Of a stretch of 64,000 nucleotides of DNA, positions 6,392-63,157 are shown piece by piece. This stretch comes from an uncultured Methanosarcinales archaeon (GTDB lineage: Archaea; Nanobdellota; Nanobdellia; Woesearchaeales; CAYZNE01): positions 179,608 through 243,607 of the forward strand of contig CAYONI010000001.1 in assembly GCA_964405295.1 (NCBI GenBank). Reading direction: 5' to 3'. The stretch's first letter is position 1. Each line of letters starts with the position of its first letter. The notes under the pieces are model-generated. The model was not told the DNA's origin. It ran no database searches and saw nothing but the letters and a program-made list of their open reading frames with translations. The position numbers were made by a program, and so were the translations under genes.

Positions 6392-7171
6392 CTATTTCTT
6401 TCTTTTTAAGTTTATTAGAAGAATCGCTCCAAGAACAAACATTGCTAAACTAAACAACTGTCCTGTTCCTAAACCAAGGAATATTGCAGGATCTTCTCTA
6501 TAGAAAGTAACAAGAAATCTTAATAAACCATACAGTGTAATAAAAGTAAAAAAAACAAAGCCGTGCTTTTTATTTTTCTTCTTAATTAAATAACTTCTCT
6601 GGAATATCAAGAAAAATCCAATAAATACATTCTTTAATGCTTCATAAATTTGGCTCGGGTATCTACAGCCCTCAACTCCATAGTTAGAATAATCTATGCA
6701 AAACCAAGAATTGCTTATTTTTCCAATCAATTCTGCATTAATGAAATTTGCTATTCTACCGAGAAACAAAGTGAATGCTGCAGGAATTGAAATAATGTCT
6801 GCAATTTCAAGAAAATTAAGCTTATACTTCTTGCAGAAAAAATATAATACTAAAACTATGCCAATTAATGCTCCGTGGAAAGACATTCCTCCTTGCCACA
6901 AAGCAAAAATATTAAGAGGATTATGAAAATAATATGAAAGATTATAAAACAGAACTTCTCCTAGTCTAGCTCCAACAATTGTTGCAAGAATAAGATAAAT
7001 GGTAAATTTATCAACTAACCCTATTGTTAAGTTTTTTATTTTGTTATGTTTTGCAAAATGCTGAAGAATTAAGTAAGATAGTACAAAGCCTATTGCATAA
7101 ACAAGGCCGTAATATTTAACTGTAAAGGGGCCAATACTAAATAAATTTGGATTTAAATTATGTATAAACAT
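6392..7171 (-). CDS. lgt: prolipoprotein diacylglyceryl transferase
   Basis: YYGLVY, GARL, GGMSFHG, GRIANFINAELIG, YPSQIYE signatures. Confidence 0.93.
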   Translation of the reverse strand: MFIHNLNPNLFSIGPFTVKYYGLVYAIGFVLSYLILQHFAKHNKIKNLTIGLVDKFTIYLILATIVGARLGEVLFYNLSYYFHNPLNIFALWQGGMSFHGALIGIVLVLYFFCKKYKLNFLEIADIISIPAAFTLFLGRIANFINAELIGKISNSWFCIDYSNYGVEGCRYPSQIYEALKNVFIGFFLIFQRSYLIKKKNKKHGFVFFTFITLYGLLRFLVTFYREDPAIFLGLGTGQLFSLAMFVLGAILLINLKRKK

Positions 7172-57330: not shown

Positions 57331-58791
57331 CTATTCTTTAAGTTCTTTTTCTGCTTTGTAACGTTGATATCCTTCTTCATATTTTTGTATTAACATAATA
57401 TTACCTAATGAACTAGCAGTTCCGGCACTAATTGCAAGATCCATATCATCAGGAGGATTATTCATCAACTCTTGGGGTGTTTTTCCTTTATCTCTATATC
57501 TCATATAATAACTCATTCCTTGAGCAAAATCATCTATTTGTAATTCACTTGCAAGTTTGTTCACTGCCTCTACAGGAAATGTAGTACCATAACTAGTTAT
57601 ACTGCCTATCATCATGTTAGAACCACCAGCAATGATCCCATAGCTAGCAAGAGTATCCCTAGCAACTTTTTTATCCATTGACCACCTAATATAAGTATCC
57701 ATGGTTTGTATAAAATGAGTAGGTTTTTTTATGTCTTTTTTATAATCATCTAAAGTTAATTTTGCTATTAGCCATTTATGTTCTTTATCTGCATCTTTGT
57801 AACTAGTATGAAACCAATTAATGGGGTTCAGTCCACTAAAGAAAGTAATATCTTTAAGTTTTTGCCAAGTAGTTGGTTCAAGTAAATGTTGCAATGAAGA
57901 TTTCCATACTCCTGAACCTCCAAAAACAAGTTGATCATTACTTCTTCTCATTACAGCTATCCGTTTTATTTTTCCATCTACCTTTAGTTCAATAACTTTA
58001 TATTCATTAGACTTAAGAGTTCTATATACTAATTCCAATTGTTCTTGTTCTTTATTTTCAAGTTTAATCCCTTTGGGTGGAATAAATTTACAGCCACCTT
58101 CGACCCGTTTATATCCTTCTTTACATGCACATAAAGTATGTATTTCTTTTGTTTTTGAATCAACAATTTCAGTTTTTATTTTTTCTTGGGGACTACAACC
58201 ATTAGCATCATAATCATCAAATGTCCAATTTATTACACAATCAATCTTACCTTTATTATCATAAGCAGAACACTCCTCATACTCGATTTCTCCAAAAAAA
58301 GTTGCGCCCATCCAATCATTAAAATTGTCAAGTTCAACAAATTCAAAATCGACGATGTCATTGTAAAAATCTTCTAGAAAATTAGTTTCATTATCATCAT
58401 TGTCAATTTCATCGTAGTAATCATCATAATTTCTATTATCATTATCACTCCCTTCAAAATCTTTTACTAGAACAACAATATCTTCTCCAGGGCACATATC
58501 ATCTGTATGTATACAAGCATAAAGACATCCAGGACAAGAGGTATACTCCCAATCTCTGTGACATGCTTTATTGGGATCATTAGGTTTTTCATTAATTGAA
58601 CCTACTGAACCACAGACACAATCTTTGGTATAACTATAATGTGCATCAGCTATTGAATTACAATCACTTTGAACACAACCTACACCACTCATTCTCTGCC
58701 ACTCATATCCTGGTTTACAATCTTGGGCATTTACTAAACTAGTAAAAAGAATAAAAAATGTTAAAAATATAAAGATTATAGTTTTTTTCAT
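57331..58791 (-). CDS. secreted Cys-rich protein
   Basis: Sec signal MKKTII...VNA|Q, 10-Cys N-terminal domain, acidic linker, EGF-like CACKEGY...GC. Confidence 0.8.
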   Translation of the reverse strand: MKKTIIFIFLTFFILFTSLVNAQDCKPGYEWQRMSGVGCVQSDCNSIADAHYSYTKDCVCGSVGSINEKPNDPNKACHRDWEYTSCPGCLYACIHTDDMCPGEDIVVLVKDFEGSDNDNRNYDDYYDEIDNDDNETNFLEDFYNDIVDFEFVELDNFNDWMGATFFGEIEYEECSAYDNKGKIDCVINWTFDDYDANGCSPQEKIKTEIVDSKTKEIHTLCACKEGYKRVEGGCKFIPPKGIKLENKEQEQLELVYRTLKSNEYKVIELKVDGKIKRIAVMRRSNDQLVFGGSGVWKSSLQHLLEPTTWQKLKDITFFSGLNPINWFHTSYKDADKEHKWLIAKLTLDDYKKDIKKPTHFIQTMDTYIRWSMDKKVARDTLASYGIIAGGSNMMIGSITSYGTTFPVEAVNKLASELQIDDFAQGMSYYMRYRDKGKTPQELMNNPPDDMDLAISAGTASSLGNIMLIQKYEEGYQRYKAEKELKE

Positions 58792-58916
58792 AATAAATGT
58801 ATTAGGTATTGCTAATTTATAAATAATTTCTTTTTTTGAGTAAAGAGGATGCAACACACATAAGTAGGAATAAAAAAAAAGAAACCTTTATATTCTGTTG
58901 ACAATTAATTTGAGTT

Positions 58917-59516
58917 ATGAGCACATTTTCAATTAAATATATACTTTTACTTATACTAGTCTTGGTATTAGCAGGTTGTTCTGGATCAAATATCAAAGAT
59001 GATTTCTGTGGTGTTCATATTAACTATCAATATTGTAAATGTGCATTCCATAATGAATATTGTGATAGTATAGGAATGAGTAAAAGTGAAGCAAAAACCT
59101 ATGTTTATTCAGAATATGAAACCTGGCTTGACACGCAATTAGAAGAAGATAAATATGGTATTATTGAGAAAGACGGAAACCTTTATCTTAACTCTGAACC
59201 TAGAAAAGTATTATCTATTAAAACAGAAGATTTGCCTGTCTGGGCTCGTGGAAAGATTGCTACTGTTGGCGCAACAATTGCAGTAGTTGGGCCACCTGAT
59301 ACAATTATAGAAGGTGACAGTAATGTTCTTCTTGATGGGCTTCCTATTGCAAGAGAAGGAGATGGGACTGCTCAAAGAGGAGAAATTATTGAAGGTTCAG
59401 AAAATATATTTGTAAATGGCAAACCTGTAGCACTCATTGGCAGCCAAACAGTAAACCCTATGGTGACTGGAACTGTACCTCATGTAGGTGGACCAATAAC
59501 TAGTAACACTAACTAA
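58917..59516 (+). CDS. lipoprotein with C-terminal PAAR-like domain
   Basis: Lipobox LAG|C21; PIAREGD, PVALIG, GPPDTI, PHVGGPI. Confidence 0.85.
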   Translation: MSTFSIKYILLLILVLVLAGCSGSNIKDDFCGVHINYQYCKCAFHNEYCDSIGMSKSEAKTYVYSEYETWLDTQLEEDKYGIIEKDGNLYLNSEPRKVLSIKTEDLPVWARGKIATVGATIAVVGPPDTIIEGDSNVLLDGLPIAREGDGTAQRGEIIEGSENIFVNGKPVALIGSQTVNPMVTGTVPHVGGPITSNTN

Positions 59517-59577: not shown

Positions 59578-60324
59578 TTATTCTTCAACTTCTACTTTCC
59601 CATAATATTTATATGCTATTTCTGGTCGATAAAAATGCATCCAGTCTTGCGAATTTTTCCAGTCTCCACCCCACTTCCAACCTTCCTCTTTGAATATTTT
59701 TACAATTTCTGAATCTGCTTGGAGTGTTCCTTTTTTACTTAGATCACGAGGATAATTTGGAGAATTTGGTAAACCTTTTTTGATAAAAGGATTTAGTACA
59801 GAATTTATGTCAATAGCTGCTCCAAAAGCATGATCTGAAATCTCGTTACTATTTTCTACAAAACGCCAATCAAATGCTCCGCAATTATTAAGTCTTGAAG
59901 ATGTATTCCAATTAAACATACTAATTGGAAAAATACTTGTCATAGGGAAATCCGTTTCTAAAAGAATTCTTTTGAAAATTCTCTTTATTGAAGATACTAA
60001 ATATTTATTGATGATGATTTGACCTGGATATATTTGATTATTAAAACCTCTGTAATCAACATTAACTAGTTCTATTTGATCAATTATTTCTTGAGGTACT
60101 TTTTTTTCCCTAAGAGAATCCAAAAACTCTTTTTGAGTCATAAGTCGCGGTTGGATAATAGGTTGTTTGTAGTTTAAAGGATTTTCTAATATTTCTTTTA
60201 AGGTACGCGAAGGCCACAATTTCAGTGCTATGTTTTTTGTTTGTAGATCTTTGGTCTTTGATTTTTTAGTAGAATCTTTTAATTTAATTTCTAGTTGTTT
60301 AAGTCTCAGATTCATTTCATTCAT
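59578..60324 (-). CDS. M15 family Zn peptidase (peptidoglycan peptide hydrolase type)
   Basis: R...SDHAFGAAIDIN, WKWGGDW, DWMHF. Confidence 0.9.
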   Translation of the reverse strand: MNEMNLRLKQLEIKLKDSTKKSKTKDLQTKNIALKLWPSRTLKEILENPLNYKQPIIQPRLMTQKEFLDSLREKKVPQEIIDQIELVNVDYRGFNNQIYPGQIIINKYLVSSIKRIFKRILLETDFPMTSIFPISMFNWNTSSRLNNCGAFDWRFVENSNEISDHAFGAAIDINSVLNPFIKKGLPNSPNYPRDLSKKGTLQADSEIVKIFKEEGWKWGGDWKNSQDWMHFYRPEIAYKYYGKVEVEE

Positions 60325-62143: not shown

Positions 62144-63157
62144 ATGACAAAAGAAAATAAATCTAAAGAATATATTTATCTGATTGCAATTATTGCTATA
62201 ATTGCTATTGTAGGTATTTTAACAGTAAACAATATAAATCTAGAAAATATTGGTGGCAAAGCATATACCAAAGAAGAATATTCATATTATACAGAAAAAG
62301 ATATATCCCTAATAGAAAAATTTGCTGATGCAGTAGAAAAAGAAGAATATATAAAAATAGAACTAAGTGATGGTTTAAAAATAGAATTTTATTTAACTAG
62401 CACACTGGAACATTTTGTGGAATTTTCTGAAGAAATAGAGCCTATTGAAGTAAATGAATTTATAAACAATAATGCGCGTGAATCAGATCCTTTATTCAAT
62501 AAAATTGATAAATTCTTCAAATCTCCACAAATTAAAAACTTACCTTTTTATAATGTTGAAATAAATACCAAAAAAACTGAACTAAAGCAAACAATCTTAG
62601 ATAATGTTCAAGGAATTATACCAACAAGAGGCTGCTCCTGTGGTAATAGTTTAACAATTTGTTTATGGGCAAGTCAAAATCTTTGTGCGACTGGAAGTGG
62701 CGGGGGAAATATTTGGTGTTTTCTAGAAGATACAGAAATAGATTTAAATGAGAAAAGCGAAAAAATCCAGAATATTATAATAGGGGATATTGTTAAATCT
62801 TATGATACAGAAAATAATGAAATAGTTTATTCAGAAGTAACTAATATTTTTAAAGGCAAAACAAAGGAGTATTTCCTAATAAACAATAACTGGCAAGTAA
62901 CACAAAATCATCCTTTTTGGATAGATGAAAAATGGAAAAAAGCATCAAATATAGAGGTAGGTGACTTTTTAATGTCAAGTAATAAACAAGATATAAGGGT
63001 AGAATCAATAATAAAAATTCATGAAAATGCAGACATTTACAATATTGAAGTTAATAATTACCATAACTATTTTGCAAACAATGCACTAGTGCATAATAAA
63101 GCATTTGTTGGTGGATACATTACAAGTGTTAGTATTAAAATTTCTTTTACATTCTAA
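62144..63157 (+). CDS. membrane-anchored protein with Cys-rich segment and Hint domain
   Basis: N-terminal TM; Hint from CFLEDT to LVHN. Confidence 0.88.
   Translation: MTKENKSKEYIYLIAIIAIIAIVGILTVNNINLENIGGKAYTKEEYSYYTEKDISLIEKFADAVEKEEYIKIELSDGLKIEFYLTSTLEHFVEFSEEIEPIEVNEFINNNARESDPLFNKIDKFFKSPQIKNLPFYNVEINTKKTELKQTILDNVQGIIPTRGCSCGNSLTICLWASQNLCATGSGGGNIWCFLEDTEIDLNEKSEKIQNIIIGDIVKSYDTENNEIVYSEVTNIFKGKTKEYFLINNNWQVTQNHPFWIDEKWKKASNIEVGDFLMSSNKQDIRVESIIKIHENADIYNIEVNNYHNYFANNALVHNKAFVGGYITSVSIKISFTF
62717..63097 (+). other. Hint / bacterial intein-like domain (127 aa)
   Basis: Block A CF, block B TQNHPF, block F IYNIEV..HNYFA, block G VHN; no endonuclease. Confidence 0.9.

Follow-up and report, generated by a model that had tools for sequence, protein, structure and literature searches.

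A lipobox-headed PAAR protein with rotated repeats in a DPANN archaeon: a spike-tip fold that appears to have been taken over for the cell surface

Introduction

The gene described here lies in a 64,000-nucleotide stretch of contig CAYONI010000001.1 (assembly GCA_964405295.1, positions 179,608 to 243,607 of the forward strand), which belongs to the metagenome-assembled genome (MAG) of an uncultured archaeon placed in the Woesearchaeales; this whole stretch is called the window, and coordinates refer to it unless another contig is named. The coding sequence at 58917..59516 (+ strand, stop codon included) specifies a 199-aa protein in which a lipobox leader and a small four-cysteine domain precede a complete PAAR cone with its three repeats in the order 2-3-1. 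The PAAR fold, otherwise known from injection machines, appears to have been taken over for a job at the cell surface. An earlier note, made from the letters alone, had proposed a lipid-anchored and circularly permuted PAAR domain that had lost most of its zinc ligands, and the analysis presented here follows up that proposal.

PAAR proteins have been surveyed before. In the accessible part of a 2012 survey of polymorphic toxins (PMC3482391), PAAR is treated as strictly associated with type VI secretion (T6SS) and as N-terminal. A 2021 survey (PMC8651086), as far as its accessible text goes, reports that archaea encode only PAAR_D3 and discusses extracellular contractile injection system (eCIS) or Phage_GPD neighbours; its archaeal PAAR_D3 and Gram-positive PAAR_H2 resemble the 199-aa protein in being PAARs outside the classical Gram-negative T6SS hosts. 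The accessible text of that survey, supplements apart, contains no mention of permuted, lipoprotein or signal-peptide PAARs, and a search of the full-text literature outside subscription journals and supplements returned no report of a permuted, lipoprotein or DPANN PAAR. The permuted clade to which the 199-aa protein belongs is therefore apparently undescribed so far.

Results

The reading frame follows from the list of open reading frames (ORFs) and the sequence, and about 55 full-length homologues, some 200 aa long and 45-92% identical to it, came up in a word-indexed search. About 30 nt 5' of the ATG, the letters suggest a putative archaeal TATA box, TTTATATT (58887..58894, +), which, if real, would possibly imply a leaderless or short-leader mRNA. 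The protein begins with a predicted signal peptide (58917..58979, +) ending in the lipobox LAGC, whose Cys21 is predicted to carry the lipid and to begin the mature chain. It is followed by a helical four-cysteine domain, here called the N4C module (58980..59150, +; residues 22-78; pLDDT, the predicted local distance difference test, 90-95), with cysteines 31, 40, 42 and 49 lying within the stretch FCG..YCKCAFH..YC of the translation and helices at 37-45, 49-52 and 56-77 in the full-length AlphaFold2 model. A family-specific extension (59151..59249, +; residues 79-111) then forms a beta-hairpin (79-92), followed by a strand (98-101) and the motif LPVWAR; it is modelled at pLDDT 97 in the module model described below and is conserved, with L106 and P107 invariant and G81, P95, L99 and D105 nearly so in 37 diverse members. 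Residues 112-199 (59250..59513, +) make up the cone, whose loops run from the GPPD loop (repeat 2, to about residue 128) through the TAQRG loop (repeat 3, 129-161) to the NPMVT..PHVGGPI loop (repeat 1, 162-197). Three PAAR-like motifs mark this C-terminal half: LPVWAR, the first of them and part of the extension, LPIARE and KPVALI. The ORF, the lipobox cysteine at residue 21 and the four-cysteine stretch were thus all confirmed as the earlier note had read them.

The identity of the cone as PAAR is carried by both profiles and structure. The Pfam model PF05488 (PAAR_motif) matches the protein in two stretches at 64.5 bits (cut-off 27; E 1e-17), and PHROG 281 ('PAAR motif') matches at E 4e-12; NCBIfam NF033420 (T6SS_PAAR_dom) stayed below its cut-off, with 34.8 against 124 bits and a match confined to model positions 18-78 of 94. 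For the full-length protein, an AlphaFold2 model built with 20 homologues reached pLDDT 82.8 with a weak C-terminal tail; its best Foldseek matches were the PAAR chains 4jiv_D and 4jiw_D, and VIA-align placed model residues 112-196 onto residues 2-88 of 4jiv_D with Z 10.1 and a root-mean-square deviation (rmsd) of 1.3 Å over 75 residues. A model of residues 74-199 alone, built with 64 family members, was predicted with still higher confidence (pLDDT 95.9; predicted template modelling score 0.87). When this module model was compared exhaustively with 48,161 chains, the top six were all PAAR proteins: c1882 (4jiw_D; Z 10.0, rmsd 1.9, 78 of 93 residues aligned), T4 gp5.4 (9.0), P1 (8.4), phiKZ gp163.1 (8.3), 9jg9_B (6.3) and Pvc10 (4.7), and the seventh chain reached only Z 3.0. 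With these six chains at the head of the comparison, well clear of the rest, residues 112-199 are a complete PAAR cone. The N4C module, which folded only within the full-length model, found no better match than IsdB (Z 2.0) by Foldseek and VIA. The PF05488 match, the three-repeat conical fold and the PAAR chains at the top of the structural matches together uphold the PAAR assignment.

The closest relatives by structure are thus the class 1 PAARs VCA0105 and c1882 (4jiv_D, 4jiw_D) and the phage tips T4 gp5.4, phiKZ gp163.1 and P1, with Z 10.1-8.1 and rmsd 1.3-2.4 over 72-79 residues. By sequence, the protein shares its three repeat motifs, with 40-50% local identity and the same cone fold, with canonical N-terminal T6SS and eCIS PAARs, such as 8gra_J ('T6SS spike protein Paar'), 9rce_c (SalCis10) and the Bacteroidota proteins P0073-P0120. 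These canonical proteins have the order 1-2-3, lack a signal peptide, place the domain at the extreme N-terminus and keep their Cys/His ligands; the 199-aa protein, in contrast, has the order 2-3-1, a lipobox leader, an N-terminal stalk and one of the four ligands.

The rotation of the repeats emerged from alignment against solved PAAR structures by phmmer, in which residues 171-195 of the query matched 8gra_J residues 4-28 and residues 114-181 matched 42-110; SalCis10 (9rce_c) shows the same swapped match. Among 262 fetched proteins, 61, all canonical PAARs, repeat the swap (query 167-197 to target 2-32, query 111-172 to target 39-110), 100 are collinear with the query through at least residue 190 and make up its own family, and none has any third motif order. 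From the 61 canonical domains a 102-state profile was made, which matched the unrotated segment 97-199 in two swapped pieces (profile 43-97 at 52.2 bits, 2-32 at 34.5 bits). After rotation of the segment by 65-70 residues, a single collinear match remained, spanning profile positions 2-96 at 83-88 bits, and it is only then that residues 97-112 fit positions of the canonical profile. The 61 proteins were themselves chosen by the swap, so 8gra_J and 9rce_c serve as the independent reference; no canonical match of another order existed that could have been dropped. The 2-3-1 order read by the earlier note is therefore borne out both by aligning the protein as it is and by aligning it after re-permutation.

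A collinear alignment to a known PAAR, which the earlier note had named as speaking against this order, was found in one sense and not in the other. By sequence, no canonical PAAR aligns collinearly until the segment is rotated, whereas by structure the cone aligns collinearly with 4jiv_D and 4jiw_D. Structurally the three repeats are equivalent, which keeps the structural alignment collinear and leaves the permutation visible in the repeat-specific motifs of the sequence alone. What happened is best seen as repeat identity rotated from 1-2-3 to 2-3-1, with the cut at a repeat boundary. In 8gra_J, residues 100-110, past the third repeat, again resemble the start of repeat 1, and query residues 171-181 align both there and at 4-14; this stretch may be the trace of a fourth repeat, and may thereby hint at duplication and trimming as the origin of the rotation.

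In canonical PAARs, according to the accessible text of PMC10715212, either three His and one Cys or two of each coordinate the apical zinc, and the ligand residues are required for T6SS activity in enteroaggregative Escherichia coli. Class 1 and phage-tip PAARs are described there as binding the apex zinc through His/Cys and capping gp5/VgrG beta-helices. A MAFFT alignment of 99 family modules, in which the ligand columns are equated by sequence rather than by structure and take their ligand roles from the accessible text of the same paper, gives V-Q-N-H at columns 123/153/180/189 of the 199-aa protein, with the Cys of the GPPD loop aligning to V123. Seven of the 99 modules, the 199-aa protein included, share V-Q-N-H, 14, P0042 and P0131 among them, have C-H-C-H, and most others read V-H-D-x. 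The claim that most zinc ligands are lost therefore stands for the 199-aa protein, where three of four are replaced and H189 is left, and fails for the clade, where C-H-C-H is kept in those 14. As far as the aligned residues can tell, the apical metal site has decayed in the lineage of the window's protein and not across the whole clade. Relative to class 1 PAARs and phage tips, the protein thus combines a degraded site with a genome assembly in which no PAAR-using spike gene was found.

Bacterial lipoprotein signal peptides end in a lipobox of consensus [LVI][ASTVI][GAS]C. The lipobox of the 199-aa protein is L-A-G-C, its C21 is kept in at least 90% of 20 aligned homologues, and the lipobox regular expression is satisfied by most members of about 200 aa. 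The machinery to process it is present in the same genome. A bacterial-type Lgt gene lies in the window at 6392..7171 (-), where PF01790 matches at 223.6 bits (G000:C1:186020-186757, that is window 6413-7150), and signal peptidase II (LspA) is encoded on contig C5 (51304-51675; PF01252, 89.8 bits). Among the control genomes, the Lgt and LspA families were matched only in bacterial ones (Lgt in the 10 bacterial control genomes). A crude scan counted lipobox-like N-termini in 22 of the 1355 ORFs of at least 100 aa in the genome. The 199-aa protein is thus probably lipid-anchored on the surface.

A hydrophobic segment ahead of PAAR is also known from prePAAR effectors, T6SS cargo proteins with a prePAAR motif, N-terminal transmembrane (TM) helices, Eag chaperones and a C-terminal toxin. 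In the 199-aa protein, by contrast, a conserved lipobox closes the segment, Arg, Asp and His are all absent from residues 1-20, and no T6SS was found. The protein has no toxin domain either, and the chain ends three residues past the cone.

An exhaustive phmmer search of 1.84 billion representative sequences returned 680 proteins with an E-value of 0.001 or less and 95 with one of 1e-10 or less; the permuted clade, defined by a collinear cone, comprises 98 of the 262 proteins fetched, and the closest named homologues come from MAGs of Candidatus Woesearchaeota and Nanoarchaeia. Two architectures dominate. In type A (about 50 of the 98; about 200 aa; Woesearchaeota/Nanoarchaeia), the lipobox and N4C module are followed by the cone at the extreme C-terminus. 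In type B (about 35 members; 300-800 aa), an N-terminal hydrophobic leader is followed by a variable domain, the cone, a conserved domain of about 70 aa and, in most cases, a C-terminal TM helix. Judged from these layouts, both architectures are predicted to put the cone outside the cell on a membrane tether.

The ~70-aa domain of type B, which reads ..EVGD.VVIG...KGS.IL..PL...YPAGT.. between cone and TM helix in P0121, P0155, P0137 and others, belongs to no Pfam family; phmmer of P0155 against the PDB gave PAAR matches only, and the ESM Atlas gave scores of at most 0.79 with no usable match. The N4C module, for its part, also occurs without PAAR, at the head of Patescibacteria/Parcubacteria proteins of 330-1100 aa, nine of ten of which lack any Pfam family, the exception being the FecR/DUF5667 protein P0192. 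Four-cysteine leaders of this kind and the 10-Cys leader domain found next door in the window (57331-58857, -; see below) are both common to DPANN archaea and Patescibacteria (P0275-P0318), and one Parcubacteria contig of 584,723 bp encodes one of each (P0060 and P0300). From these arrangements, the two leaders look like exchangeable heads for variable, uncharacterised C-terminal domains.

This modularity invites a reading in which the PAAR fold is a generic extracytoplasmic scaffold, for example the ligand-sensing part of tethered regulators, and the lipoprotein is its minimal form, with no spike-like or contact role. Two type B proteins point that way, since P0137 carries three cytoplasmic winged-helix domains beyond its TM helix and P0131 ends there in a Zn ribbon (one member of its cluster is named Thermoleophilia bacterium), as does the N4C module heading a FecR/DUF5667 protein. 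Such regulatory tails, however, occur in few members only, and the 199-aa protein has no cytoplasmic part at all. Its hairpin and cone are moreover strongly conserved, which points to a specific interaction, and we regard the generic scaffold as distinctly unlikely.

Whether the genome encodes a spike that the cone could tip was asked of the whole assembly, which measures 1.27 Mb in 98 contigs at 96.8% completeness and 31.5% G+C; the contig of the window encodes archaeal EF-1alpha and Kae1. A search for sequencing runs that contain the DNA listed two DNA runs, both from marine metagenomes and one of them perhaps the source, and no RNA run. The genome contains a single PAAR match, and profile searches for Phage_GPD, Phage_base_V, Phage_sheath_1, T4 gp19 and gp25 found no match in it. 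Baseplate_J, in contrast, matched contig C8 (L023:1-20000) at 52.1 bits. This contig of 21,194 bp, with 35.1% G+C against 31.5% for the genome and all genes on one strand, encodes a terminase, a portal, Mu-F, a major capsid protein, a cement protein, a neck terminator, a DUF3383 sheath, a Dit-like protein, a Pam3 gp18 plug, an E217 gp41 hub, a central spike with a phi92-type N-terminal OB domain, a sheath initiator, Baseplate_J and DUF2612, which together form a myophage structural module from terminase to baseplate. The sheath shares 50-53% identity with the sheaths of Yersinia phage fEV-1 and several Vibrio phages. At the C-terminus of the spike, P0319, stands ..NHTHD.., an HxH motif which we take to be the iron-binding apex of gpV/phi92-type spikes, self-tipped and needing no PAAR. 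C8 is probably a bacterial myophage contig mis-binned with the MAG, at most a virus, and we read it as no system that uses the lipoprotein. Extended from the window, for which the earlier note made it, to the assembly, the statement that there is no injection-system gene needs to be divided accordingly: no PAAR-using spike was found in the genome, but contractile-tail genes do exist on this phage-like contig.

The other genomes that carry the cone (G216, G370 and G219; 93-97% complete, one a single contig) contain no Phage_GPD, no sheath above cut-off and no Baseplate_J, and the same holds for G052, which has the N4C module only. In the carrier genomes searched, of 1.1-1.5 Mb, no spike for the cone was found. 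The viral contigs of IMG/VR, searched with two patterns, yielded no relative.

The most conventional explanation is nevertheless that the cone is a spike tip after all, capping a trimeric beta-helix in some fibre or injection apparatus that is unrecognised, highly divergent or assembled through Sec and that is encoded by the archaeon, by one of its viruses or by its partner organism. The cone is complete and very confidently modelled, the 14 C-H-C-H members keep the canonical ligands, and contig C8 illustrates that standard family searches can miss tail modules. The accessible text of PMC8651086 also describes Firmicutes PAAR_H2 genes that adjoin Phage_GPD without eCIS or T6SS genes. Against this, a Sec/lipoprotein leader is unsuited to the assembly of a spike in the cytoplasm and gives each polypeptide its own tether; in the longer form, the cone is internal, flanked by two other extracellular domains. 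Neither Phage_GPD nor Baseplate_J was found in any of the other three carrier genomes, the loci have no conserved neighbourhood, and the one spike at hand, that of C8, ends in its own HxH tip. We consider a conventional spike tip unlikely on balance.

The distribution of the cone is patchy. Of 401 sampled genomes of the phylum, 4 carry it, among them the window's own, and one more has the N4C module alone; the same-genus genome lacks the 199-aa protein. Between the window and six full-length loci from species-representative genomes (L002-L007) no neighbouring gene is shared, nor is any among the six, and an operon-based reading was dropped for this lack of a conserved neighbourhood. This is the profile of a mobile accessory gene and not of a core function; the patchiness suggests a role in cell-cell or host contact, or in conflict.

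A further rival reading makes the protein a defence or decoy factor, whose tethered, blunt cone on the surface would catch the beta-helix tips of arriving phage or injection spikes that lack a cap, or would block them in some other way. Incoming spikes, however, normally arrive already capped or self-sharpened and so present no free tip, the neighbouring genes, which encode a P-type ATPase, a DEAD-box helicase and an alanyl-tRNA synthetase, provide no defence-island context, and no archaeal virus with an uncapped spike was identified. What speaks for such a decoy is the patchy, accessory-like distribution, the predicted surface location of the protein and the binding of PAAR bases to spike tips in the solved complexes 4jiv, 4jiw and 4ku0, as their entry titles state. 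Taken together, we judge it highly improbable. The other roles that the earlier note had offered, a membrane base for a fibre and a host-contact tip, are conjectural as the decoy is.

The divergent neighbour of the PAAR gene (57331..58857, -) encodes a 508-aa secreted protein with an N-terminal 10-Cys domain (~58474-58728), and a domain of this kind is fused upstream of the permuted PAAR in other organisms: the neighbour's domain shares 48-51% identity with the N-termini of P0121 and P0125, in which the counterpart stands directly ahead of the permuted cone, and the fusion occurs in 3 of the 98 members. Both genes are single copy in the genome. Of the 10-Cys family, 45 proteins were found, otherwise about 410-560 aa long, several of them named Patescibacteria, Parcubacteria or Gribaldobacteria. 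The adjacency of the two genes is not conserved in the six related loci, and the link between the neighbour and the cone is for this reason only suggestive. A complex prediction of the cone module (74-199) with the neighbour's 10-Cys domain (44-128) scored 0.00, with the partner domain itself poorly folded, and so speaks neither for nor against binding; an ESM Atlas search with the 508-aa neighbour, whose own model had a pLDDT of 0.34, gave no usable match (TM score at most 0.26).

On its other side, the PAAR gene is followed by a convergent gene (59578-60324, -) for a 248-aa Peptidase_M15_4 protein, a D-Ala-D-Ala carboxypeptidase of endolysin-like type with no homologue in the six related loci; that an archaeon encodes a peptidoglycan-directed M15 enzyme is a hint that it may have bacteria as partners or prey. 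Further along (62144-63157, +), a 337-aa membrane-anchored protein carries a Pretoxin-HINT domain at 207-313 (E 3.5e-13), with only about 19 residues past the HINT domain, so that no toxin domain follows. PHROG searches of the neighbouring proteins returned only endolysin-like (the M15 peptidase) and HINT-type matches.

Discussion

Our preferred explanation, which we hold slightly better than even, is that the protein displays a surface-tethered PAAR cone as a passive binding or capping knob and not as the tip of a projectile. The protein would be exported by Sec and processed as a lipoprotein at Cys21, so that the mature chain hangs from the outer leaflet. There, at the outer face of the membrane, the short helical four-cysteine stalk and the conserved beta-hairpin would hold up the complete PAAR beta-cone. 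This cone would derive from canonical spike-tip PAARs of the CPMVT..PHVGGPI / GPPD / TAHGG type, its rotation to 2-3-1 having arisen most likely through duplication followed by trimming, and its apical metal site has decayed in this lineage. Displayed in this way, the cone would most likely bind or cap a structure of a surface or of a partner. Since the cone is predicted to be extracytoplasmic and tethered throughout the clade, it would not ride on a contractile spike that is assembled in the cytoplasm; it is this mismatch between the leader and cytoplasmic spike assembly, together with the anchor that each polypeptide brings along, that makes us favour a knob over a projectile tip.

Several observations weigh against a passive knob. 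The 14 members with full C-H-C-H would agree with a tip that is still intact and sharp in some of the clade. The structural collinearity of the cone with 4jiv_D and 4jiw_D fits a canonical PAAR, and since the rotation leaves the chain ends as they are in canonical PAARs, it need not alter function. The flat base of the cone, where VgrG/gp5 strands attach in 4jiv, may lie open or may be hidden under the conserved hairpin. A contractile tail is present in the assembly, on C8, and the first five family searches missed it, and negative family searches in other genomes are therefore weak evidence; the carriers, moreover, are MAGs at 93-97% completeness. Finally, we infer, but do not observe, the lipidation, the outward display and the ligand binding.

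A more specific version of the tethered knob, which we put forward tentatively and think unlikely as a whole, sees in the clade a contact device without a contractile machine, displayed on a lipid or TM tether by episymbiotic DPANN archaea and some monoderm bacteria. Such a device would dock onto, cap or plug a three-fold symmetric structure of a partner or host, such as a surface-layer pore or a trimeric fibre, and the 10-Cys neighbour would be part of the same surface complex.

The clade comprises about 100 sequences with a repeat-rotated cone that is predicted to be Sec-exported, tethered and mostly metal-free. The analysis also documents bacterial-type lipoprotein machinery in a DPANN archaeon and modular leaders shared between DPANN archaea and Patescibacteria. 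If the surface knob is correct, the PAAR fold, which the cited literature treats as a tip for the spikes of T6SS, eCIS and phages, also serves beyond injection machines, and if the contact device holds as well, this would be a second, non-ballistic use of a fold known only as a spike sharpener. The protein would also be a concrete candidate for a surface component in the cell-cell contacts of DPANN archaea, which are poorly understood.

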